From contig MHKF01000018.1 in the NCBI GenBank assembly GCA_001818315.1, positions 325 to 64,324 of the forward strand: a stretch of DNA of 64,000 nt, given 5' to 3'. The number at the start of each line of letters is the position of its first letter. Position 1 is the stretch's first letter. This DNA is from Candidatus Kerfeldbacteria bacterium RIFCSPLOWO2_02_FULL_42_19 (GTDB lineage: Bacteria > Patescibacteriota > Patescibacteriia > HO2-48-17). Shown here piece after piece: positions 1,325-20,042 of the stretch. Both the position numbers and the translations under genes were made by a program. The notes under the pieces were generated by a model, which searched no databases, was not told where the DNA came from, and saw only the letters and a list, made by a program, of their open reading frames with translations.

Positions 1325-1875
1325 TTATTGAAAAGAGTTCTCGGACAGTCTGAGGAATGCGTCGCCCGGAGAAATACAAGGGTACTCCCTTGTATTTCTG
1401 AGGCCTCTTCTGTCATGATTTGTGCATGACTGAATATTGGGTTGGATCATCCACAAAACATAGAATAGTCACTCATCTGGTCTTTTGTCCCAAGTACAGA
1501 AGAAGAGTATTGATAGGCAAAATAGCCAAGAGAATAGAACAGTTATTCATCCAATGCTGCCAGATGAACAAATGGCAGATATATGAGTTAGGCTTTGATA
1601 AAGACCACTTACATCTGATTATTCAAACCCCACCCAGTGAGTCTTTAGCCCAGGTGGTACAACTGCTCAAAGGAGGGAGTAGTCGTGTCATACGACAAGA
1701 GTACCCAGATCTGGACGAATTTCTCTGGGGAGATAGCTTTTTGGAGCGATGGCTATTTTTCCGAAAGTATCGGTACCAAGAATGAAACAGTGATGAGAGC
1801 GTATGTAAAGCGTCAAAACAAATCATGACATAGGAGCAAAAGCCCCGCCTTTTAGGGCGGAGATTCTGTTACTTC
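1325..1875 (+). mobile_element. IS200-type element (tnpA only, no tnpB) bounded by subterminal hairpins
   Basis: Left hairpin agaaatacaaggg-tact-cccttgtatttct, then the TnpA ORF, then right hairpin gccccgcc-tttta-gggcgg. Boundaries are approximate. Confidence 0.45.
1420..1785 (+). CDS. tnpA: IS200/IS605-family Y1 (HuH) transposase TnpA
   Basis: 121 aa with 'HLVFCPKYRRRVL', HuH motif 'HLHLII', and C-terminal Tyr region 'RKYRYQE'. A perfect 13-bp subterminal hairpin lies upstream (about 1349-1378) and a GC hairpin downstream (about 1843-1866). Confidence 0.8.
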   Translation: MCMTEYWVGSSTKHRIVTHLVFCPKYRRRVLIGKIAKRIEQLFIQCCQMNKWQIYELGFDKDHLHLIIQTPPSESLAQVVQLLKGGSSRVIRQEYPDLDEFLWGDSFLERWLFFRKYRYQE

Positions 1876-2049: not shown

Positions 2050-2976
2050 TTAGAAGATAATTGGTTCGCGGGGTGAGCGTGGAAACAACACAACTTGTTC
2101 CATGGTTCGAATACCCGTTAAATAGCGCAGTAAGCGTTGTAAACCAAAACCAGCACCGGCGGTTTGCGGAATTAGTTTCTCTTTGGCCAAATCAAGATAT
2201 ATTTCATAAGCTGACTTGTCCATATGACGTTCATCCATTTTACGAATAATAGTTTCGTAATCATTTTCTCGTTCGCCACCGCTTAATCCCTCTTCAAACC
2301 CTTCAGGGTAGATTAAATCATAGTTGATAAAACATCCTGGTGTTGTTGGATCTTCTTTGTCATAGAATTCACGATAGAAGCTTTCTAACCAAAATGGCGT
2401 GGTCATAGTTTTGCTCAAAATGGCTTCGAAATCATCACCGTATTTCTGTTTCATTTCATCAGTTGATAAACGCGGAAATGGCATTTTGAGAGTTGGTAAT
2501 GTTCTACCTAAAAATGTAAGTTCATGTGCACATTTTGTTTTACAAACTTCAGTGATTCTAATTAGCAGATCTTCCATGAGTGTATAAACATCTTCTTTCT
2601 TTCCGCCTTTTATTTCAAAATCAATTTGTTGAAATTCTAACAGATGCCGGCTTTTTGCTTCACTAGATTTTTCCAAGCGTACATTGGGGGAAATAATTAC
2701 AATTTTATCCAGATCGCCTAGTAGAGCAATCTGTTTATGGAAAATCATACTTTTTGTTAGGTGCAAATATTGTGCTTCATATTCTATACTAGCCGGATGA
2801 ACACCATGAGCTAGTGGATCAGTCAGCGGTGCTGTAATCACCGGTGGTAACTCAATAAAATCTCGTTCTCGAAAAAAAGTTTGAATTTCATATAATACTA
2901 ACGATTGTATTTTTAGTACTGCCAACATAGGTTTACTTGACGTATGCTCCATGAGTTGTTTTGTAACTTGTTTCAT
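2050..2976 (-). CDS. AsnA-like / archaeal-type asparagine synthetase A (class-II aaRS catalytic-core paralog without anticodon-binding domain)
   Basis: 308 aa. Class-II motif-1-like 'FRERDFIELPPVITA', motif-3-like 'GAGFGLQRLLRYLTG'. Too short for a full AsnRS/AspRS. Confidence 0.5.
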   Translation of the reverse strand: MKQVTKQLMEHTSSKPMLAVLKIQSLVLYEIQTFFRERDFIELPPVITAPLTDPLAHGVHPASIEYEAQYLHLTKSMIFHKQIALLGDLDKIVIISPNVRLEKSSEAKSRHLLEFQQIDFEIKGGKKEDVYTLMEDLLIRITEVCKTKCAHELTFLGRTLPTLKMPFPRLSTDEMKQKYGDDFEAILSKTMTTPFWLESFYREFYDKEDPTTPGCFINYDLIYPEGFEEGLSGGERENDYETIIRKMDERHMDKSAYEIYLDLAKEKLIPQTAGAGFGLQRLLRYLTGIRTMEQVVLFPRSPREPIIF

Positions 2977-3514
2977 AAATAGAATTAGTTTAAGTATAAG
3001 ATGTATTGATTGAGATTGTAGTTATATAATGTGGTTGCGAGCCACATTCATTTTAGTTAAAAGTTTTTTCATATTGTCATTAAAATTAAAAAATCCAGCT
3101 ACTTGGCTGGTTTATATTTTTAATTAAGTTATGGATTCAATATTATTAAAATATGGCCAGCCGTTGGAAGTGGTTATTTTGATTATTATTATTTTGGCTG
3201 GTAAATCTGTATTGCATATGATTTAGAGCTAGTATATACTCTTAACACATCTTGTCAATGAGCGTTGTGGAAAAACAATACTGAAGTTTAAGTAAAGTAA
3301 AAAACAGCAGCAGGGCGCGCGGCGGAGTTCCTCCCCGCACCCCTCCTTCCACCGCGCCTAATTAGCATTCGAATATTGAGTAAAATACGTTCGAATTTCG
3401 TCGTAAGTAGTCAGCCATAAAACTAGATACGAACTCTGAGTTTTGAGATGAGAGGGTTCGCTCACCCAGCCCCGCCATCTCCTTTAGACTCCTGGCCGGT
3501 TTCTTTTATGAATT

Positions 3515-4543
3515 TTGTTTAACTTGATAATTCCGCGTCAGCTTGCTGCGAGGAGGGAAGTAGAGCATTTCGAGGATAATACAAGATTCAATATGATTTT
3601 TGATAAGGTTTTCGTTGGGCCCTCTCGCATATCAGGCAAAGGTTTGCTTGCGCGACGCGATCTTGGTAAAGATGAGATAATTTTTCGTTTGCAAGGTCCT
3701 GTCATTCGATATAATTTTTCTCCGGACTATCGACTTGGGCCACACTGGATCAATGTTGGAGAAAATACGTGGATCATACCGACCGCGCAGGTCCCATGGC
3801 GATACATTAATCACAGCTGCACTCCTAATAGTGGACTTTGCGATCGACGTCAGGTGGTGGCTATGCGCCGCATAAGAAAAAATGAAGAAGTCACGATTGA
3901 TTATTCCTGCACTGAATCTTTTGCTTCATGGAAGATGAAGTGCTGTTGTGGTTTAAAGGATTGCCGTCGTGTGATACGCAGTGTGCAGTTTCTTCCGGAT
4001 GAGCTGTTTAGAAAATATCACGATTACATTCCTTCTTTTTTACGTAAGGTTTATGAGCAGCAAAAATTTTACGTCTTTTCTTCCAACCAGAAAAAGGGCG
4101 TATTTGCGAAGCATTTCCTTCCGAGCGGAACATATATTTTCACCGTTGAAGGGCCGGTGATTCATTATCCTTATCGACCGCATTCACTCACTGGTCCATT
4201 GTGGTTGGCTGTGAATGAAAAGTCATGGATCGTGCCGCTGAAAAATAATCCGTGGTGCTTTATGCATCATTCTTGTAGTGGCAACACCGGTCTGATTCGA
4301 AGAAACAGGATTGTTGCTTTGAAAGATATTGCCAAAGATGAAGAAATTACTATTGACGATTCTATTACCGAAGCCGATCTTTCGTGGAGAGAGAAATGCT
4401 CTTGCGGAAGTCATCAATGTCGCAAAATCGTTCGCAGCATTCAATTTCTTCCAGAGCATATTTATCAAAGTTATTTGCCTTATATCCCAACGTATTTACA
4501 AAAAGTCCATGCGTCTTTTCAAAAGCATGTTGATCGTGTGTGA
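3515..4543 (+). CDS. Tandem double SET-domain protein (two SET + post-SET Cys clusters)
   Basis: Two repeats each carry a GxG-type motif ('ISGKGLLARRDLGKDEII' / 'KKGVFAKHFLPSGTYIF'), 'NHSCTPN' / 'HHSCSGN', 'EEVTIDYS' / 'EEITIDDS', and post-SET 'CCCGLKDCR' / 'CSCGSHQCR'. The track start is TTG; the true start is more likely the ATG at about 3592 (MIFDKVFVGP). Confidence 0.65.
   Translation: MFNLIIPRQLAARREVEHFEDNTRFNMIFDKVFVGPSRISGKGLLARRDLGKDEIIFRLQGPVIRYNFSPDYRLGPHWINVGENTWIIPTAQVPWRYINHSCTPNSGLCDRRQVVAMRRIRKNEEVTIDYSCTESFASWKMKCCCGLKDCRRVIRSVQFLPDELFRKYHDYIPSFLRKVYEQQKFYVFSSNQKKGVFAKHFLPSGTYIFTVEGPVIHYPYRPHSLTGPLWLAVNEKSWIVPLKNNPWCFMHHSCSGNTGLIRRNRIVALKDIAKDEEITIDDSITEADLSWREKCSCGSHQCRKIVRSIQFLPEHIYQSYLPYIPTYLQKVHASFQKHVDRV
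3516..3550 (+). promoter_or_regulatory. Conserved 35-nt noncoding motif, copy 1 (tgtttaacttgataattccgcgtcagcttgctgcg)
   Basis: About 30/34 identical to 28858-28892. Lies just upstream of the probable ATG of the SET gene. Confidence 0.3.
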
Positions 4544-4644: not shown

Positions 4645-5520
4645 ATGAACACAAAAATATTCTTTTTCATTCTTCTATCCTCTCTTGTCATCTATCTTGG
4701 GTGCTCAAAAAATCCATCGAATAATACAAAAGCAGATGTCTTAAAAGTAAACACGAATGCAACAGCGAAAGCGAAGCAAACGAATTCCTCATCTTCAATC
4801 GCTGGCACGTATCGTTGTTGGCATTATGAAATTAACGACGCACCTGTCGAAGCCAGCTGTCGAACATTCGCTCCACTTGTTCTGAATGCTGACGGAACGT
4901 ATAATCTATCTTCGGAAAGAGGTACGTATACTCTTACGGACGACCAGTTGATTCTTTCGGAATCAAAACTTCGAGGTCCCGGAACACTTCTCGAAAATGG
5001 AGAGCAGATTATGTTTGAATATACCGTTGGTGACCAAGATCAGCGTATCACGTATTTGAGAGATCAGGGTTCTGGAACTAGCAGTCAAGCCACTGATGTA
5101 AATATCATTACTGTCGATCTCTCAGTTGCTTTTGCAGAAGACGATGGTCGTGTGGGTTGGATTAATGTTATGAAGTTAGTCTCCGAAGACAACGGATTAC
5201 AATATGAAACACTTGCTACGGCAGATGAATCCGATGTCGTGAGTGCGCGTTTTTATGAAGTACAAGTTGATTCTATGTACACAGCTTATGCTTCAACCGG
5301 CACTGATGAATTCGTTGTTGGCACTGTCGATTTGCAGAATGTTGATACAACGGAATCGGTGATACCCATAGATCTTACGTTTCCGGCAGAAGGTTCGAGT
5401 ACGAATGTGAATGTCGGTACGGACGAAAATCTTAACAGTGATGATCCTGAAGAAGAGCCAGTCTTTTATTATGAATTTGGTCCGGGTAGAGAAGAAAATC
5501 CTGGTGGACCAGAATATTAA
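4645..5520 (+). CDS. Secreted lipoprotein, function unknown
   Basis: Signal peptide with lipobox 'YLGCSK'. Acidic, Thr-rich mature region. Confidence 0.5.
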   Translation: MNTKIFFFILLSSLVIYLGCSKNPSNNTKADVLKVNTNATAKAKQTNSSSSIAGTYRCWHYEINDAPVEASCRTFAPLVLNADGTYNLSSERGTYTLTDDQLILSESKLRGPGTLLENGEQIMFEYTVGDQDQRITYLRDQGSGTSSQATDVNIITVDLSVAFAEDDGRVGWINVMKLVSEDNGLQYETLATADESDVVSARFYEVQVDSMYTAYASTGTDEFVVGTVDLQNVDTTESVIPIDLTFPAEGSSTNVNVGTDENLNSDDPEEEPVFYYEFGPGREENPGGPEY

Positions 5521-5540
5521 TATCTGTAATATTCAATAGT

Positions 5541-5945
5541 ATGCAACTATCTCTTTTTATACTTTTAGTTCTTTCTGCATTGGGTATTGTGAATACCGCG
5601 TATCTTGTGTCGCATGTCTTCAACAAGCGGCCCGTTAAATGTTTATTTTTTCCACCAGAATGGTGTCATAAAGTTCAGTTTAGCCGCTACAGTAGAACTT
5701 TTGGCATTCCTAATTCCTTTATGGGGATATCTTTGTATCTCTTTATCTTTATCTTCGCTTTGATGTTTTTTGTTGGTTTTGTTCCTTTGTGGCCTATAAC
5801 CGTTGCAGTGACGATAGGATTTTTATTTTCACTCTATTTTACTATTATTCAAGCATTTGTTTTGAAGGCATTCTGTACGTGGTGTGTATTTTCCGCGCTT
5901 GATTTTACGTTGTTGTTTATTATTATTTTTTTCGTCGGAGTGTGA
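5541..5945 (+). CDS. VKOR-like small integral membrane thiol-oxidoreductase (tentative)
   Basis: 134 aa with 4 TM segments. Loop Cys pair 'KCLFFPPEWCH' and intramembrane 'CTWC' resemble VKOR CXXC. Confidence 0.4.
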   Translation: MQLSLFILLVLSALGIVNTAYLVSHVFNKRPVKCLFFPPEWCHKVQFSRYSRTFGIPNSFMGISLYLFIFIFALMFFVGFVPLWPITVAVTIGFLFSLYFTIIQAFVLKAFCTWCVFSALDFTLLFIIIFFVGV

Positions 5946-6092
5946 AGGTCTGTTCCCACCTACTTTTTTTGTGTAATGTGAAAGCAAAAGAGGAGGCGGA
6001 CGAGAGCTTACGCAGCACTAACAATGCACTGTGTACTGAGAAAGTGCTTATCTTCCTCCTGCTTTTATGATCAAAATTATTCAGCGGCAAGT
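5946..6092. repeat. MITE-like palindromic element, copy 1 (degenerate arms + internal palindrome)
   Basis: Arms ggtctgttcc... / ...attcagcggcaagtc. Core aaaagaggaggcgg...ctgagaaagtgc...cctcctgctttt. Confidence 0.5.
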
Positions 6093-7244
6093 CTATTTTT
6101 CGTTGAATTCGCCGAGGATCTTTTCGCTGATTTTAATAAGGTCTTCAACTGCCGCTTCTTGGTTCAACACATCGAAAGGTGAAAGAATGCTGATGTCTAC
6201 AACGAAGCGTCCTTGTGCGGATTGAATTTCCGCAAGTGTTTCTTGCGCTAACCCATCAGCTTCGCTATCAATAGATTCTGGAAGTTCTATTTCTGAGCTT
6301 TGTACCGATTCGTCAGCCGCAACCCCGGTTTTGAGTAATTCGCTTTGGTAGGCGCTTGCGAGTTCCGGTGTTTTGAATTCTAAAATCACAATTTCTATTG
6401 CTTCTTTAGGACGTTTATTGACTTGAAAACGCGCGAGTCCACCAGATTGAAAACCCTCGAACGTATCGTTTTCAAAATCACGTGAAGTGCCGAGCCAATC
6501 GCTTCCTTCAACTTTTGCTGTACCAAGATAAGTAGTGTCAGCGACGGTTTTTGGCAGTTTTCGCATAGCAATATTTTGTGGTTCGTTTGAAAAGCGTTCA
6601 AATCCATTCAGAACCCGTTTGATTCTCTCTAGTTGTTTTGCTGCAAGTTTCTCGGCAAATGGTAAGAGTTCTTTTTCTCCTTCATCAGCACTTGTAATAG
6701 CATTATTTCTATCAAAGACTTGGATTTTTGCCGCTACGGTCGCTTGTGTAAGGCGATACGTTACATTCGCTGGATCAAACTCATTTGCTTCTTGGAAATA
6801 TACAATGCTTGATTCGCCGTATTGTTTTTGGGGTGTTAATTTTGTTTCACCTTCAGATTTTACTGTAACGAAATTTTTTGCTTCTTCGCGCGAATTGAAA
6901 CTGACAATCGCATTGCCAGCAAAGATGTTGCCTGTTTTTCGATCAATAATTGCTCTTCCGATGACACTTTTAAACGGCGCTCCCTTTTCTTCTGGCTCCA
7001 TGTGGTCATTGAATTCAATTAACTGGGTACGAATCTCTCCTTGACTATCTGTTGCTTCAGCAATTTCTTTTTCTGTGAGTATCGCAAGCGCCCAGTCGCT
7101 ATCTTGAATTTTGCTTGTTTGTGGATTTTTCTGGAACCAAAAGTACAGTGCTACGGCGATGAGAATACCACCTGCTAAGCTGAGGGCGAATATGACGTAC
7201 CATTTTTTTAAAGCTGCTTGTGAGTATGTATTTTTTGTTGGCAT
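6093..7244 (-). CDS. Membrane-anchored hypothetical protein
   Basis: N-terminal TM 'YVIFALSLAGGILIAVALYFWF'. Acidic extracytoplasmic domain. The stop abuts a MITE-like repeat. Confidence 0.45.
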   Translation of the reverse strand: MPTKNTYSQAALKKWYVIFALSLAGGILIAVALYFWFQKNPQTSKIQDSDWALAILTEKEIAEATDSQGEIRTQLIEFNDHMEPEEKGAPFKSVIGRAIIDRKTGNIFAGNAIVSFNSREEAKNFVTVKSEGETKLTPQKQYGESSIVYFQEANEFDPANVTYRLTQATVAAKIQVFDRNNAITSADEGEKELLPFAEKLAAKQLERIKRVLNGFERFSNEPQNIAMRKLPKTVADTTYLGTAKVEGSDWLGTSRDFENDTFEGFQSGGLARFQVNKRPKEAIEIVILEFKTPELASAYQSELLKTGVAADESVQSSEIELPESIDSEADGLAQETLAEIQSAQGRFVVDISILSPFDVLNQEAAVEDLIKISEKILGEFNEK

Positions 7245-7312
7245 ATTTTGTATTATGAATTTTTATACTTTTTTCCCTACATTCTTCCTTAACGTAGGAT
7301 AATTTATTCTGT

Positions 7313-7930
7313 TTATTGTATTTTTAATGATTGAAGAATTTTTTCGCCCGTAGCGCTTTCCTCTGCATAATTATCGAGTTTCCCTGTAAATGAGATAATA
7401 TAGGCCTTGTTGTTTTTGACTGCCCATGCTTGTTTGATTTTTGTTTGAAAGTTCTTTCCGTCTTTTGTGAAGTCTTCCCCAGTTGCAGTATAGGTGAGTG
7501 TGTATCCCGGTACCCCATTGATTGTTGTATTTTTTGATTCGAGAATTTCTATCTCCCAATCGAGGATGTCGAGGTTTTCGAGAGCCGCTTCTGTATATTC
7601 GTCGAGTGTGACAGGATTCTCAGAGAGATCTTCCACTGTAAATGTCACATTCGTACCGTTTTCCATAGCAAAACCTACAATGCCTCCTTCTAATGCTTGT
7701 TGTTCCCAAGATGAAGGATATTCAAAACTTACACCATTCGCAGCGTCTTCGTATGTACTCCAAGTCTCTTTGGACGTGGATGTTGATGTCTTCTTTATGT
7801 CGCTATTTTGATTATTTTCACTTTCGTCGGCGATACTGAAGAGTTTATAAAAACCAATTACCAGCGCAATAATGATGACGATGATGCTGACTAGTTTTAT
7901 GAGTTTGTTTCGTTCCATTGGGGTATACAT
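7313..7930 (-). CDS. Membrane-anchored hypothetical protein
   Basis: N-terminal TM 'LVSIIVIIIALVIGFY', then a soluble domain. Confidence 0.45.
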   Translation of the reverse strand: MYTPMERNKLIKLVSIIVIIIALVIGFYKLFSIADESENNQNSDIKKTSTSTSKETWSTYEDAANGVSFEYPSSWEQQALEGGIVGFAMENGTNVTFTVEDLSENPVTLDEYTEAALENLDILDWEIEILESKNTTINGVPGYTLTYTATGEDFTKDGKNFQTKIKQAWAVKNNKAYIISFTGKLDNYAEESATGEKILQSLKIQ

Positions 7931-8198
7931 TTAAAGATAAATTTGAGTTTATGAAAATTTTCCGATCAGTCCGGCTGCTCCAAAAGACCTTGAATATATT
8001 TGATTCTTTGATTTTTTCTACTTTTGCTAGTATAGCACAATGAGTTTTTGTTGCATAACATATATTGTTTTTTTATTCGCAGATTGTTTTGCGCTTCACA
8101 TTGTAATTTTTTTTGTTTATACTCGTTGCTATAGACCGACAGTAAGAACACAATCTTTCTGATATTGTTCAAAAATAGGGAAGAAATGGAGGTGTAGG

Positions 8199-8561
8199 AT
8201 GTCAGAAAATTCTCGAAAGTTGCGTGTTAAAGTTTTGTACTATGCCGGTTGTTTGACAGACCAGATGTTGAGGGAGTACGATCTTGTACTGATTCAATCT
8301 GGCGTCGTCACGGGTCCTGCTCCTTATGGAGGAGCAGAATGGGGTCTGGTTCCAGCGTATTTGAAAGAAGGTGCGCTGCTGCCCGATGAAACAATCGTCA
8401 TAGCACAAGATCCTGTGCTCCTGCAGACACTTGTGCAGCATCTGGTTTCTCGAGTAAAGGAGTCTCAGTATTACTCTGCAGGGAGCTCATTCTCCGTCTT
8501 CATGAAGGCTGAAGAATTAGCAGGTTTTACCTCTCCAGCGTTTACACTGGAACTTCACTAA
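8199..8561 (+). CDS. Hypothetical small protein (stand-alone transcription unit)
   Basis: Strong RBS GGAGGTG 5 nt upstream of the ATG. Followed by a hairpin plus T-run terminator. Confidence 0.4.
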   Translation: MSENSRKLRVKVLYYAGCLTDQMLREYDLVLIQSGVVTGPAPYGGAEWGLVPAYLKEGALLPDETIVIAQDPVLLQTLVQHLVSRVKESQYYSAGSSFSVFMKAEELAGFTSPAFTLELH

Positions 8562-8573
8562 GTTCTTTGCTTA

Positions 8574-8606
8574 GGGCTTACCTTCGGGTAAGTCTTCGGC
8601 TTTTTT
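8574..8606 (+). terminator. Rho-independent terminator
   Basis: cttacc-ttcg-ggtaag stem-loop followed by tcttcggcTTTTTT. Confidence 0.5.
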
Positions 8607-8678
8607 GAGAGTAGAAAGAATCCTCTTTTGACATCCTACCAAAGCATTGTAGTATGAAAGAAAGAGTTTTTTGCTTCC

Positions 8679-9290
8679 ATGGCTATTCTTTTTGAACAAC
8701 TTGCTTTTTCAGAACAGATCAGTCTCCTTTTAATTCGATATGGTTTAATCGTTGTTTTTTTTGGCGCTCTTTTTTTTGGTGAGACGGTTATTTTAAGTGC
8801 TGCGTTCCTTTCTGCACAGGGCTTCTGGTCTATTATTTTTGTCTTTCTTCTTGCGTTTTTTGCCACCTTGCTTTCGGATTCCGTATGGTATTTGGTTGGC
8901 AAAAAATCGAATACTGCTTTCCAGAAATTTCGAGAACGCTACGGAGGACGTTTACCTTTGCGTTTTTTTTCACAACACCTGAGTCCGCCTCCGACGCACG
9001 CATTACTCTCTTTGTTGTTTATTAAATTTCTCTACGGCACCCGTATTCTGATGTTGTTGTATTTTGGAAGTCAAAAAGTTTCTTTTCGTTATTTCACTCT
9101 TTTAAATGCTGCGGGTACGTTTCTCTGGCTTGTCACTATTCTCCTTATCGGTTGGCTTGCGGGCCGTGGCTATGATGCTTTGGTACCTGATTTGCAACGA
9201 TTTCAGTATGTCTTTTTAACTCTCATTCTAACGGTGATTGTGATTAAGCTTTTTCTTTCATGGTTAGGAAAATTTCTTCTCAAAAAGTAA
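8679..9290 (+). CDS. DedA/VTT-family membrane protein (tentative)
   Basis: Polytopic. 'FFGALFFGETVILSAAFLSAQG' resembles the DedA/SNARE-associated motif. Confidence 0.4.
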   Translation: MAILFEQLAFSEQISLLLIRYGLIVVFFGALFFGETVILSAAFLSAQGFWSIIFVFLLAFFATLLSDSVWYLVGKKSNTAFQKFRERYGGRLPLRFFSQHLSPPPTHALLSLLFIKFLYGTRILMLLYFGSQKVSFRYFTLLNAAGTFLWLVTILLIGWLAGRGYDALVPDLQRFQYVFLTLILTVIVIKLFLSWLGKFLLKK

Positions 9291-10267
9291 CTGCGATTGT
9301 TCCTGCCTATAATGAAGCCGAACGCATCGGCGGAGTATTACGTGTACTTTCGGATCATTCTGTTTTTTCTGAGATAATCGTTGTTGATGATGGATCGTCT
9401 GATGTGACGCAATCGGTTGTTGCGCGTTATCCTGTACGGTATGTTCGGCACACAAGAAATTTTGGGAAAGCTCAGGCTATGGAAACGGGTGTGCGGTTTG
9501 CAACAAGTGAGGTTATATTTTTTTGCGATGCCGATATTTCCGGCCTGACGCACGCTATTATTGACGAAATTGTGAGGCCTGTATTGCATGGGCAGGTAGA
9601 AATGTTTATTGCGATGCGGAATCGCAAGGTGTATTTTTTGAAAACGTTGGTTGCTTTCGTCCCATTGTTAGGCGGGGAACGCGCGTTGACACGACGTTTA
9701 TGGCAGAGTGTTCCGGAGCACTATAAAAAGCGTTTTCGCATTGAGACCGCGCTGAATTTTTACGCGAAGTATTATGGCGCAGGCTTTAGGTATAAGTTAT
9801 TTCCAGGACTCTCGCAGAGTATTAAAGAACGGAAGTATGGAATTCGGATTGGACTTCAACAGCGAATGTTCCTTTTTTATGATGTTTTTGTTGCGATCAT
9901 GCGTCTGCAATTTACTGCATTGCCGAAAAATATGAAAACTATGCGCTTGATGTTTGGTTCTTTATTTTGGAGCTTTTTGGGAATTGCGGCAGGTATTATT
10001 ATTCTTCTTGTGACCAATTTTGGATCAGAGTTTTGGTTTGTGCGTTTCTTTTCAACGCAACTCCGAGCGATTGATTCTACTGTTGTGCAAAAGTTATTTT
10101 CTGTCGCGCGCCAACTTGGTCGTCAAACTTTGAGTGTTGTCGGTTGGATGATACTTGTGACGCACGGGATTGTATTTCTTGCGTCTTTGCAGCGTTTGCT
10201 TTTTTTACTGCGATCCGCTGGAATGCGTTTTATATCACTTTTTACCAAGGCAAAAATATTGCGCTAA
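9260..10267 (+). CDS. Family-2 glycosyltransferase with C-terminal TM segments (Dpm1-like)
   Basis: 'VTAIVPAYNEAERIGGVL', 'IIVVDDGSSD', 'FFCDADIS'. C-terminal hydrophobic helices. Confidence 0.7.
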   Translation: MVRKISSQKVTAIVPAYNEAERIGGVLRVLSDHSVFSEIIVVDDGSSDVTQSVVARYPVRYVRHTRNFGKAQAMETGVRFATSEVIFFCDADISGLTHAIIDEIVRPVLHGQVEMFIAMRNRKVYFLKTLVAFVPLLGGERALTRRLWQSVPEHYKKRFRIETALNFYAKYYGAGFRYKLFPGLSQSIKERKYGIRIGLQQRMFLFYDVFVAIMRLQFTALPKNMKTMRLMFGSLFWSFLGIAAGIIILLVTNFGSEFWFVRFFSTQLRAIDSTVVQKLFSVARQLGRQTLSVVGWMILVTHGIVFLASLQRLLFLLRSAGMRFISLFTKAKILR

Positions 10268-17356: not shown

Positions 17357-19264
17357 TTATTGTGCTACTTGGGTTGCCCAAAATGTAAGATTACCTGTGT
17401 GCGCTCCTGCTTCCTGAAAGTTTTCCGGTACATTTAAGCCGATGCGAATTTCTTGCTGATTTTGCTTTCCAAGTCGCATTTCAAATGCCGACCAGAGTAA
17501 GTCGTTCAGTTTTAGAAACTGTTTCATAAGATTTGATCCCTCGACCTCAGGATTTACATCGATGTTGACATTTCCGGTGTTATTGATAGTCATCTGCTGT
17601 AGGGGCGCTGATGATCCCGGGGTAAGTTCACCAAAATTGATCGGGCCGCCCGTGACGGTGATGGAAATTTCTGGTTCAGGTTCTGGCTCTTGATTCTCAT
17701 CTTCGTTGTCATCATTATCGTTATTTTCATTTCCATCTTCTTCATTATCTTCAGGATTGGGAATCACAACACTTGCTGCGAGCGTAATACTTTCTGAAGG
17801 CGTTCCGACCGCAAGTGTTTCCATTCGAGAACGTACCATGCTTTGTTTTTCTGCAAAGATTTTAACGCTTCCAGATTCGGTGGGTGTATATGCTACAGCG
17901 CCATCTGCGTGCGTTGTCAATGTGTCGGTATCTGCGTGAATCGTGACCCCTGGTTCGAACTGCCAAGCGCTGCCATTAAAAATTTCACTCCTTATTGTGA
18001 TAGGTTGTTTCGGTATCGTTTTATTTGGTTCGATCAAAACTCGGAGCGGTTTCCATGTTGATTCGCCGAAATACCAAAGTACTTCATCACTTTCTTTGAG
18101 TTGATGGGCAGGCGCCGGAACTGTTCCGGGAATCCACTTCACAAGATAGAGCCAACCGGTGAGGTCGTGCGCCGCATCGTCATTGATACGCCGCAAGTAG
18201 GTTCCATTGAAATCAAGTTCGTAGGTATATCCGCAGGAAGCTGCAGCGCTTGTGATAATCTCCATTGGTGTGCGGGCTTGGATGTGGCCGGTGCAAATAT
18301 TTTTGGTTGCCCCTTCAATACGAAAGGGGATGTCGATATTTGGCAGCTCTATTACGCGTGTTGGTAACTTTTTTTGTCCGAGTGCGAGCGTTGCGAACGC
18401 GGTGTTTGCTTTGATGCCTTGCGGAATAGTGCTGACTTTCCACCAAAAATCACCTTCGCGTGTTTGCATGCTTTGGATAAAATCCAAAGGTGTTCCGAGT
18501 TGCGCGCGCCAAGTCTCGATCGATTCTTCGAGTGTCACAAGTGCAAGGACGACCCACGAGGTACTATCGGTGTTTGGTTCAGTGTCTTGGAATCCTACGA
18601 AACCGCCGGTTCGGTGTTGCTTTGTCCGGAGGAAATTTTTTGCTGTCTGAAGACTTGCGTGATTTTTTGGGATGTTACTCGCCCGCAAAGCGATGATTGC
18701 AGCAGCGGTATTATCAACGTCGCTCTCACCTCCATCAATGAGTGGAAAGCCGCCGTCCTGATTTTGATGCTGCAGAAGTGTGTTTGTGATATTTTGCATG
18801 ATTGCATCGGTTGGTTCGATACCCGCTGCTCTCAGGGCTATCATACCCCAGACATCATCGTTCAAGAGTCGCTGATCGCCGATGTGAGCATGATGATAAT
18901 AGTTGTTGAGAAATTCTTGGATGAGATTACGATCAGGTAATTTGTTGCGCGGATCGAAACCGAAAGCGGTGAGGGTCAGGATTTTTCGTGCGTAATCTGT
19001 TGCTTGGGTTTGAGGGAAGTTCTGGAGGCCGATACGTGTGACCTCTTCATTGATACGTTGCGTTGCGTCCAATCCGGCGATAGTGAATAGCGTCCAATCT
19101 ACAGTTGATGCGCCCGCAGTTTCTATCCATTGCGGACGTTTGGTTTGATCAATAAGAAAATTCAGTGCCTGCTGTTTACTTTCTTCTAGAGATTCAGCAT
19201 GCACCTCGTGCGTGTTAAGCAATGTCAATCCGAGTATGGAAATGAAAATGAGTATTTTTTTCAT
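17357..19264 (-). CDS. Secreted protein with prenyltransferase/squalene-oxidase-like (alpha/alpha-toroid) repeats and acidic low-complexity linker
   Basis: 'QDGGFPLIDGGESDVDNTAAAIIAL', 'RTGGFVGFQD...TSWVVLAL' repeats. 'EDNEEDGNENNDNDDNEDENQEPEPEPE'. Likely true start MKKILIFISILG (signal peptide) at 19264; the track ORF extends to 19405. Confidence 0.55.
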   Translation of the reverse strand: MKKILIFISILGLTLLNTHEVHAESLEESKQQALNFLIDQTKRPQWIETAGASTVDWTLFTIAGLDATQRINEEVTRIGLQNFPQTQATDYARKILTLTAFGFDPRNKLPDRNLIQEFLNNYYHHAHIGDQRLLNDDVWGMIALRAAGIEPTDAIMQNITNTLLQHQNQDGGFPLIDGGESDVDNTAAAIIALRASNIPKNHASLQTAKNFLRTKQHRTGGFVGFQDTEPNTDSTSWVVLALVTLEESIETWRAQLGTPLDFIQSMQTREGDFWWKVSTIPQGIKANTAFATLALGQKKLPTRVIELPNIDIPFRIEGATKNICTGHIQARTPMEIITSAAASCGYTYELDFNGTYLRRINDDAAHDLTGWLYLVKWIPGTVPAPAHQLKESDEVLWYFGESTWKPLRVLIEPNKTIPKQPITIRSEIFNGSAWQFEPGVTIHADTDTLTTHADGAVAYTPTESGSVKIFAEKQSMVRSRMETLAVGTPSESITLAASVVIPNPEDNEEDGNENNDNDDNEDENQEPEPEPEISITVTGGPINFGELTPGSSAPLQQMTINNTGNVNIDVNPEVEGSNLMKQFLKLNDLLWSAFEMRLGKQNQQEIRIGLNVPENFQEAGAHTGNLTFWATQVAQ

Positions 19265-19338
19265 AGGAAATTTTGAGAAGTTTTCTGAAGAGCGTCGCTT
19301 TTTTTGCAACGCTCTCCTTAAAAATCCCGTTTGTGCTT

Positions 19339-19674
19339 TTAACATGGCGACTGTGAGACTGTGAAAGTCTCTATAATGATTTCCCCAGTCATGAAATCGC
19401 GCCATTCGATAGTATCCCCCTCGTACACTTCTACTTCCTCTACCGGAATTTGTTCTTGCACGTTATTGAGGAAATAAACCAAATTCGTTGATTTATATTC
19501 ACCAAGTCCTACGACTTTTCTGCCGCATGGCGAAGTCCAAAATTCTTCGGTGATCGCGATTCGTTCGACCGTGACGTCCGCTACAGTTCGTGATTGTGGA
19601 GTAGGGCATGTTTCGTTACCGAGGAGTACTCCCAATGATGTAAGGCAGACATGTAAGAATCCTCTTCTTTTCAT
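19339..19674 (-). CDS. Small secreted hypothetical protein
   Basis: Signal-like 'MKRRGFLHVCLTSLGVLLG'. First gene of the minus-strand secreted operon. Confidence 0.35.
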   Translation of the reverse strand: MKRRGFLHVCLTSLGVLLGNETCPTPQSRTVADVTVERIAITEEFWTSPCGRKVVGLGEYKSTNLVYFLNNVQEQIPVEEVEVYEGDTIEWRDFMTGEIIIETFTVSQSPC

Positions 19675-20042
19675 GTTTCCTTGAATACCTTGGCGGTCGT
19701 TTCTTCCATCATGCATCTGCTGTCTTTTTTGCATTTTTTTTCACTCCTTTTGTGAAAATGAAAAACCGCCTTGGCGGCGGCATCACTGTTTCCATTTTTT
19801 GAGAGACAATTTCGTTCGATTTATACAGGATGTTTCTTGCCGCCCTCCATTCCACGAGAGGGGGAAGTTTTATGAGTCACAAGATCAAGTGTCTGGCTTA
19901 TACTCGGGGCATCGCAAAGTTACTCGCCGAATATTTACAGTTGCGGGACAGCGGGGGAATTACACCCACCTTCCTTTTTCTTGAGACTGTTTGTGAAGGA
20001 CGTTATTTACACTGTATCATGAAGTATTGAACCGAGGCAAAT

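Follow-up and report, generated by a model that had tools for sequence, protein, structure and literature searches.

Does a bacterial protein that carries two SET units in one chain work as a methyltransferase at both of them, or has one unit been kept for another purpose? The question is raised by a stretch of 64,000 nucleotides (hereafter the window; positions 325 to 64,324 of contig MHKF01000018.1, GenBank assembly GCA_001818315.1) from the groundwater ultra-small bacterium Candidatus Kerfeldbacteria RIFCSPLOWO2_02_FULL_42_19. We identified in it an uninterrupted open reading frame (ORF) on the plus strand, at 3515..4543, that opens with TTG, comprises 342 codons and encodes a tandem SET protein. 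The reading that we favour, and consider rather likely, is that of a single-chain pseudo-dimer in which an active N-terminal SET unit, directed at lysine in proteins, would be joined to a non-catalytic C-terminal pseudo-SET unit.

A preliminary description of this DNA had proposed that a single ORF at these positions encodes an internally duplicated SET and post-SET protein in a bacterium, and both the uninterrupted frame and the duplication are borne out. A Pfam scan of the whole protein returned SET (PF00856) alone, in two stretches. When the halves were scanned separately, with the Pfam gathering score of 22.4 bits as the threshold for assignment, residues 1-183 scored 43.4 bits (E = 5e-11) and residues 184-342 scored 34.8 bits (E = 2.3e-8), so that the profile search suggested earlier for each half came out positive in both cases. 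The halves align to each other gap-free over 139 residues with 45% identity (E = 1e-49), far more than chance would give, so that the internal duplication is genuine. A repeat search within the gene found no DNA-level repeat between the two halves, which points to an old duplication and away from an artefact of assembly. A recent duplication or assembly artefact is further ruled out by the occurrence of the architecture in many independent assemblies.

The true start of the gene is most likely the ATG at 3593 (M27 of the long form), not the TTG at 3515, which would place the tandem SET protein gene at 3593..4543 (+) with a probable product of 316 amino acids. Three observations point to this start: most homologues begin there, a few residues ahead of the first SET strand; residues 1-22 of the long form have a predicted local distance difference test (pLDDT) score below 50 in an AlphaFold2 model; and public collections hold the exact 316-residue product, not the 342-residue form. 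The shorter product is recorded as OGY78938.1, from Candidatus Kerfeldbacteria bacterium RIFCSPHIGHO2_02_FULL_42_14, under the names ‘hypothetical protein A3B74_03545’ or ‘SET domain-containing protein’.

All the residues associated with catalytic competence (GxG, the Asn-His pair and the Tyr) are present in the N-terminal unit (N unit). Its SET core, the predicted catalytic unit, lies at 3605..3907 (+; residues 31-131) and is the source of the 43.4-bit Pfam score. It contains the GxG (G41-K42-G43, 3635..3643) predicted to form a wall of the pocket for S-adenosylmethionine (SAM), the motif NHSCTPN (N99-N105, 3809..3829) and the motif EEVTIDY with the predicted catalytic Tyr130 (3884..3904). 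A post-SET CxCx4C cluster follows at 3941..3964 (C143, C145 and C150), which is predicted to form a zinc site together with C102. The unit ends in a conserved two-helix tail (IRSVQFLPxxLFxKYxxYIPxFL, 3971..4063) that leads directly into the first strand of the C-terminal unit (C unit).

The C unit, a predicted non-catalytic pseudo-SET, comprises SET, post-SET and tail at 4064..4540 (+; residues 184-342), and there the same residues fail. The GxG position is degenerate (K193-K194-G195, 4091..4099), the second motif reads HHSCSGN (H251-N257, 4265..4285) with His for Asn and Gly for Pro, and the third reads EEITIDD (4340..4360) with Asp282 at the position of the catalytic Tyr. The post-SET cluster is preserved at 4397..4420 (C295, C297 and C302). 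The preliminary description had assigned GxG, NHSCxPN and EE[VI]TIDY, as well as a CxCx4C cluster, to each half. The cysteine clusters stand in both halves, but the other three motifs stand in the N unit only, and the notion of two complete SET modules has to be given up. Whether the catalytic Tyr is retained in both halves had been left as a point to check, and it is retained as Y130 in the first and replaced by D282 in the second. Missing SAM-binding residues had been named as the finding that would speak against the description, and this is what the C unit presents.

A search of a 5.8-billion-cluster protein set yielded 29 homologues with approximately 87-92% query coverage and 42-55% identity, 28 of which are full-length with the same two-unit layout; the remaining one (P0029, 237 amino acids) is truncated in the N unit. 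Only one of the 29 carries an organism name, a Candidatus Magasanikbacteria metagenome-assembled genome (MAG). Seven more members, all labelled as Patescibacteria-group taxa (Uhrbacteria, Magasanikbacteria, one labelled Saccharibacteria, and unclassified Patescibacteria), came from GTDB, scanned with one genome for each species. All seven show NHSC and IDY followed by xHSC and IDD, with the reservation that the pattern used in the scan, E[LI]x[IV]D[DN]S[IM]TE, is biased toward the Asp/Asn form of the C unit.

Columns were counted over 29 aligned sequences, namely the window protein and its 28 full-length homologues. In the N unit the catalytic-competence residues are kept in 27-29 of the 29: the first Gly of GxG (Gly41) in 27, and the second (Gly43), N99, H100, C102, D129 and Tyr130 in every sequence. 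In the C unit the first Gly is found in 6/29 and the second in 13/29, with indels in the stretch. The column of the NHSC Asn (251) holds Arg in 18 sequences, Lys in four, Asn in three, and His, Glu and Asp in one each, with Pro in P0019; the column of the catalytic Tyr (282) holds Asp in 25, Asn in three and Tyr in one. Across the aligned sequences, the asymmetry between the motifs of the two units is thus a property of the family as a whole and not an accident of one genome.

Conservation is as strong in the C unit as in the N unit, from which we conclude that the C unit is not in decay. Between pairs of sequences, the mean identity is 48% in the C unit against 47% in the N unit for the SET core, and 52% against 44% for the post-SET segment and tail. 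No variation occurs in the C unit at H252, S253, C254, N257, D281, E286, W291 or the three post-SET cysteines, and the cysteines of both putative zinc clusters (C102/C143/C145/C150 and C254/C295/C297/C302) are invariant throughout, consistent with the metal binding that we predict for each unit.

These patterns bear on the possibility that both units are active and that Asp282 takes over from Tyr in the C unit (as a general base, for instance), so that the protein would be a dual-specificity methyltransferase with a different acceptor or product state at its second site. Such a function would account for the conservation of position 282 as a specific residue without drift, for the retention of H252, S253, C254, N257, E277 and the zinc cysteines, and for a C unit as constrained as the N unit. 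The Asn before HSC also appears dispensable in a functional enzyme, given that the bacterial SET methyltransferase BurB works with Leu in its place (LLHSC). However, most members have a C unit without the GxG turn that lines the SAM pocket and with indels in its place, and the Asn position varies among Arg, Lys, Asn, His, Glu, Asp and Pro, unlike a redesigned active site. BurB itself keeps the Tyr (MDY), and of the 101 single-unit relatives with a unit closest to the N-type profile, 100 have both NH and DY; among ‘single’ proteins, the Asp form occurs only in fragments of 87-93 amino acids. We consider activity in both units improbable, and judge from the motif losses that the C unit is probably non-catalytic.

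We also considered a salt bridge between Arg251 and Asp282 that would fill the dead pocket. It is not a strict rule, as some members with Asp282 have Glu, Asp or Pro at position 251.

An AlphaFold2 model built from a 30-sequence alignment has a mean pLDDT of 90.5 and a predicted template modelling score (pTM) of 0.81. In the model, each unit has a beta-rich SET core and a short post-SET segment and closes with a pair of helices, at 162-171 and 174-182 in the first unit and at 314-323 and 326-341 in the second. No flexible linker separates the units: helix 174-182 passes straight into the opening strand of the C unit (185-189), at pLDDT 93-96. The mutual orientation of the units appears to be confidently fixed, because pTM reaches 0.81 for a two-domain chain. 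The pseudo-dimeric arrangement put forward in the preliminary description is plausible on these grounds.

Searching this model against the PDB with Foldseek produced matches to single units only, with a template modelling (TM) score normalized by the query of at most 0.33; no solved structure spanning both units was found there, and a viral structure library gave only single-unit SET proteins. The best matches were the SET domains of MLL4, MLL1 and MLL3 (E = 2.7e-10 and weaker, 25-30% identity), with further matches to BurB (E = 1.4e-9, target TM score 0.61-0.64), ASH1L, SETD2 and NSD; the probability was 1.00 for the MLL, BurB, ASH1L and SETD2 SET domains. Sequence comparisons gave a similar ranking. 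Against PDB sequences, a profile of the family matched the KMT2A SET domain over the whole N unit (profile positions 4-128, E = 1.6e-20), BurB over a partial stretch (E = 1.3e-11) and the minimal viral SET protein vSET (E = 2.6e-6), and phmmer matched KMT2A/MLL1 SET at about 1e-10 and, with the whole protein as query, BurB at 4.3e-6. Among solved proteins, the one that best matches the C unit by itself is BurB (E = 2.7e-5), in an alignment that runs on through the ‘IRSIQFLP...’ tail.

The relation to SET1/MLL (KMT2) enzymes is one of resemblance, not membership. KMT2A/MLL1 (PDB 2W5Y, 5F5E and 7U5V) is the best sequence and fold match of the N unit (Foldseek E = 2.7e-10 to 5.9e-10, 28-29% identity), and the GxG, NHSCxPN, DY and CxCx4C motifs are common to both. 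In contrast, the window protein lacks N-flanking or WRAD-interacting regions (Pfam SET being its only domain) and belongs to a bacterium without a histone substrate, and it has a two-helix ‘QFLP...YIP’ tail that is absent in MLL as well as a fused degenerate SET unit. On its own, the SET domain of MLL is not fully active and depends on partner proteins, a parallel to the helper role that we propose for the C unit.

Since the N unit is nearest to the KMT2 lysine methyltransferases over its full length, we suggest that its acceptor is a protein lysine, which we regard as somewhat favoured by the sequence comparisons. The charge of the protein does not discriminate as a clue to the substrate: the units have a mean isoelectric point (pI) of about 9.6 and carry approximately +11 each, and single-unit relatives are also basic. 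Other proteins of the window are basic too, with a median pI of 8.96.

Two other acceptors have to be weighed against protein lysine in the bacterium itself. The first is a small molecule, for instance methionine (converted to S-methylmethionine) or another metabolite, which would make the protein a counterpart of BurB, the methionine S-methyltransferase of Burkholderia thailandensis (PDB 9L4T and 9L4V). BurB is among the best solved matches by phmmer, by the family profile and in Foldseek (target TM score 0.64), and is the top match of the C unit. It is likewise a small (172 amino acids) bacterial SET and post-SET protein that aligns through the tail, with a post-SET ‘LP’ tail common to both, and it is oligomeric. 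However, BurB has a single unit, keeps Tyr at the catalytic position and acts on free methionine in a dimethylsulfoniopropionate (DMSP) or virulence-factor pathway, whereas the window protein has no such gene context. The N unit is far closer to KMT2, over its full length, than to BurB, and only the C-terminal part of each unit aligns with BurB (residues 98-164 and 67-139 of the respective queries). A comparison of 14 loci by all-against-all ORF BLAST and Pfam (13 distinct, L005 and L006 being near-duplicates) revealed no conserved biosynthetic neighbours. The very reduced metabolism of Patescibacteria also counts against a role of this kind, which we judge unlikely. The substrate contacts of BurB are made by main-chain atoms (PMC12542666) and so cannot be judged from sequence.

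The second is a protein of another organism. The product could be secreted as an effector and methylate proteins of the organism that the bacterium lives on, comparable to Legionella RomA/LegAS4 and Chlamydia NUE, which act on host histones. Many Patescibacteria are episymbionts (PMC11665869, PMC10936435), and characterized bacterial SET proteins are often effectors (PMC3980110). The 316-residue product, however, opens at the SET core with no evident N-terminal signal-like segment, contains SET as its only Pfam domain with no ankyrin, nuclear localization signal or secretion-associated domain, and has no conserved secretion genes nearby. The known hosts of Patescibacteria are moreover prokaryotes without histone tails. 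We consider this role very unlikely.

The history of the duplication was traced in a neighbour-joining distance tree of the individual units, calculated without support values. The N units form one clade and the C units its sister clade, and inner groupings are mirrored between the two (P0002/P0009/P0005, P0003/P0004/P0011, window/P0001 and P0007/P0014/P0016). Sister clades with matching topology are expected from one duplication in the ancestor of the family followed by co-divergence, and the tree thus indicates that a single ancient tandem duplication lies behind the family. C units that keep NH and DY (P0006, and P0033 with its full-length cluster mate P0208 of 322 amino acids) are basal in the C clade, which is consistent with a loss of the catalytic residues after the fusion. 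We also noted a single N-type unit, P0038 (181 amino acids, MEK7540119.1, from a Patescibacteria group MAG), that is nested in the N clade of the tandem proteins beside P0025. A tandem gene that was split or truncated could explain it, as could a secondary loss of the C unit.

Two-unit SET proteins are not confined to this family. When 1.84 billion cluster representatives were searched exhaustively by HMMER, the family profile gave 13,854 matches at E<=1e-3 and 137 at E<=1e-30. Among the best 150 cluster representatives (50% identity), about 45 have at least two SET and post-SET units, and the statement in the preliminary description that bacterial SET proteins are typically single-domain, and that this protein is unusual for that reason, was therefore overstated. 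Examples include a 358-residue protein of Pirellula sp. (MCU0721342.1, P0072) and 1,449-residue proteins of Trypanosoma with 7-8 units (the Trypanosoma brucei Q38DZ4 cluster, P0035). These share with the window protein at least two SET and post-SET units in one chain, but none has the fixed Tyr-to-Asp change of the Patescibacteria family, and most two-unit proteins among the relatives keep NH and DY in both units. In P0041, P0072 and P0034 the units within each protein are mutual nearest relatives, which marks these proteins as independent duplications. Fusion of two SET units appears from this comparison to be a recurrent event, and the peculiarity of the Patescibacteria family would be the fixed degeneration of one unit.

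The kinetoplastid proteins (P0035, P0039 and P0136, from Trypanosoma and relatives; 960-1,479 amino acids) contain 3-8 consecutive SET and post-SET units. Many of these units are degenerate, with AHSC, NY, NL or NF replacing NHSC and DY. The arrays look like a separate and much larger case of SET units with probable pseudo-units.

Based on the above, we propose that a small homodimeric enzyme composed of SET, post-SET and tail was duplicated and fused, after which one of the two active sites would have become dispensable. The N unit would be a SAM-dependent methyltransferase in which G41xG43 and N99-H100 hold SAM, Tyr130 positions the acceptor, most likely the epsilon-amine of a protein lysine in the bacterium’s own proteome, and the zinc cluster of C102, C143, C145 and C150 closes the channel. 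The GxG turn, the NHSC Asn and the catalytic Tyr have disappeared from the C unit, Asp having taken the place of the Tyr, while the fold, the zinc cysteines and the unit's own strongly conserved motifs were kept under purifying selection. The C unit most likely serves as an obligatory non-catalytic partner in place of the second ancestral protomer, stabilizing the N unit and/or docking the substrate. The independent duplications in P0041, P0072 and P0034 suggest that tandem fusion is a recurrent solution.

Relatives among the SET proteins are known to work as oligomers. BurB forms dimers in the crystal and tetramers in solution (PMC12542666), and vSET is a side-by-side homodimer, most SET enzymes being monomers (bioRxiv 10.1101/264291). 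vSET (PBCV-1 A612L, PDB 1N3J/3KMA) resembles the window protein in its minimal SET core and in that its functional form is a SET dimer. It differs in being a non-covalent homodimer of identical active units without a post-SET zinc cluster, whereas in the window protein the units are fused, are 45% identical and have catalytic residues in one only. Among other methyltransferases, PRMT7 has two modules in one chain, the second of them inactive, and METTL3-METTL14 is a pair of enzyme and pseudo-enzyme. These systems, together with G9a-GLP, offer an analogy, not a homology, to a duplicated homodimer of which one copy is kept as a structural or substrate-binding partner. PRMT7 and METTL3/14 have a Rossmann class I fold, G9a and GLP are separate chains that are both active, and none of the three systems is bacterial.

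Several points weigh against the fused pair of enzyme and pseudo-enzyme that we propose. Position 282 is strongly conserved as Asp, with H252, S253, C254 and N257 invariant, and the C unit might still bind a ligand or carry out different chemistry. The pseudo-two-fold packing of the units is deduced from pTM only. Across the 13 distinct loci the neighbouring genes differ completely, and we found nothing conserved besides the SET gene and its antisense shadow ORFs; the context thus singles out neither a partner nor any of the substrates suggested in the preliminary description (a nucleoid, ribosomal or host protein). In addition, BurB demonstrates that a bacterial SET protein of this small kind can have a small molecule as its acceptor instead of a protein lysine (PMC12542666). 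A further alternative that we entertain only tentatively, and hold to be rather unlikely, is that the C unit has become a new SET-derived module, namely a lysine or methyllysine reader or docking site, an allosteric activator of the N unit, or a site where Asp in place of Tyr has changed the chemistry.

The window contig has a GC content of about 41%. Upstream of the SET gene and divergent from it, 2050-2976 (-) encodes a 308-residue protein that matches asparagine synthetase A (NCBIfam, 322 bits against a cut-off of 309). It consists of the class II aminoacyl-tRNA-synthetase catalytic core alone and is of the AsnA type that is a paralogue of asparaginyl-tRNA synthetase. We had also considered it as an elongation factor P (EF-P) lysyl-transferase (EpmA), in line with a theme of lysine modification, and this is ruled out by the asparagine synthetase A match. 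Downstream of the SET gene are an unannotated protein of 291 amino acids and then a VKOR-family protein. Translation-related genes recur near the SET gene across the loci (alanyl-tRNA synthetase with a ribosomal-protein cluster, FtsJ/RsmG/RsmE, TypA/BipA twice, cysteinyl-tRNA synthetase, and AsnA in the window). We do not count them as evidence, as such genes are abundant in small genomes. No defence system was matched by PADLOC, and no Rfam family matched the region upstream of the gene (2900-3650) at E<=0.1.

The intergenic region directly upstream of the SET gene (3295-3505) has GC-rich patches at approximately 3305-3360 and 3450-3500 in a region of 39% GC. Its minus strand has a predicted fold of -72 kcal/mol (z = -2.05) that ends in a GC-rich hairpin followed by U6, and its plus strand has z = -2.5. 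The end of the minus strand resembles an intrinsic terminator, or else the 3' terminus of a small RNA; Rfam gave no match to 3295-3505 below E = 0.3. Mobile elements lie about 2 kb from the SET gene: a DDE transposase at 59-1276 (+; DUF772 and DDE_Tnp_1) adjoins an IS200-like Y1 transposase at 1420-1785 (+), which is apparently truncated at its C terminus (profile positions 3-96 of 121 matched).

Elsewhere in the window, a cobalamin riboswitch at 19867-20019 (-; 34.1 bits against a gathering score of 31.5) is located upstream of 17357-19405 (-). The 682-residue product of the latter has prenyltransferase/squalene-cyclase alpha-alpha toroid domains as its only Pfam matches. The alpha-domain of transcobalamin has a similar toroid, and the product may bind or scavenge B12 instead of acting as a terpene enzyme. 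At the locus of the homologue P0012 (L007), a 1,423-residue HerA/DUF87-type ATPase is encoded directly 3' of the SET gene (5328-9599), its sequence split by an intein that carries a LAGLIDADG endonuclease.

Established concepts already cover SET enzymes, their occurrence in bacteria and partners that are pseudo-enzymes, and tandem SET units are fairly common among the relatives. The finding opens no long-standing question and is a modest variation on a well-known enzyme family. We found no relevant literature on tandem or double SET domains in bacteria or on SET domains in Patescibacteria. If the proposed model is right, the family would represent a clean natural case of a homodimeric SET enzyme becoming a fused pair of enzyme and pseudo-enzyme, with living intermediates in P0006 and P0208, which retain both sets of catalytic motifs. 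The protein would then offer a compact (316 amino acids) and probably soluble system for the contribution of the second SET protomer in dimeric SET enzymes. Should the C unit instead be a reader or activator, the protein would be a single-chain lysine methyltransferase in bacteria that combines writer with reader or activator, a counterpart, in the SET fold, to PRMT7 or to MLL and its activators. For the organisms themselves, whose physiology is almost unknown, the protein would be a pointer to the methylation of proteins or metabolites.

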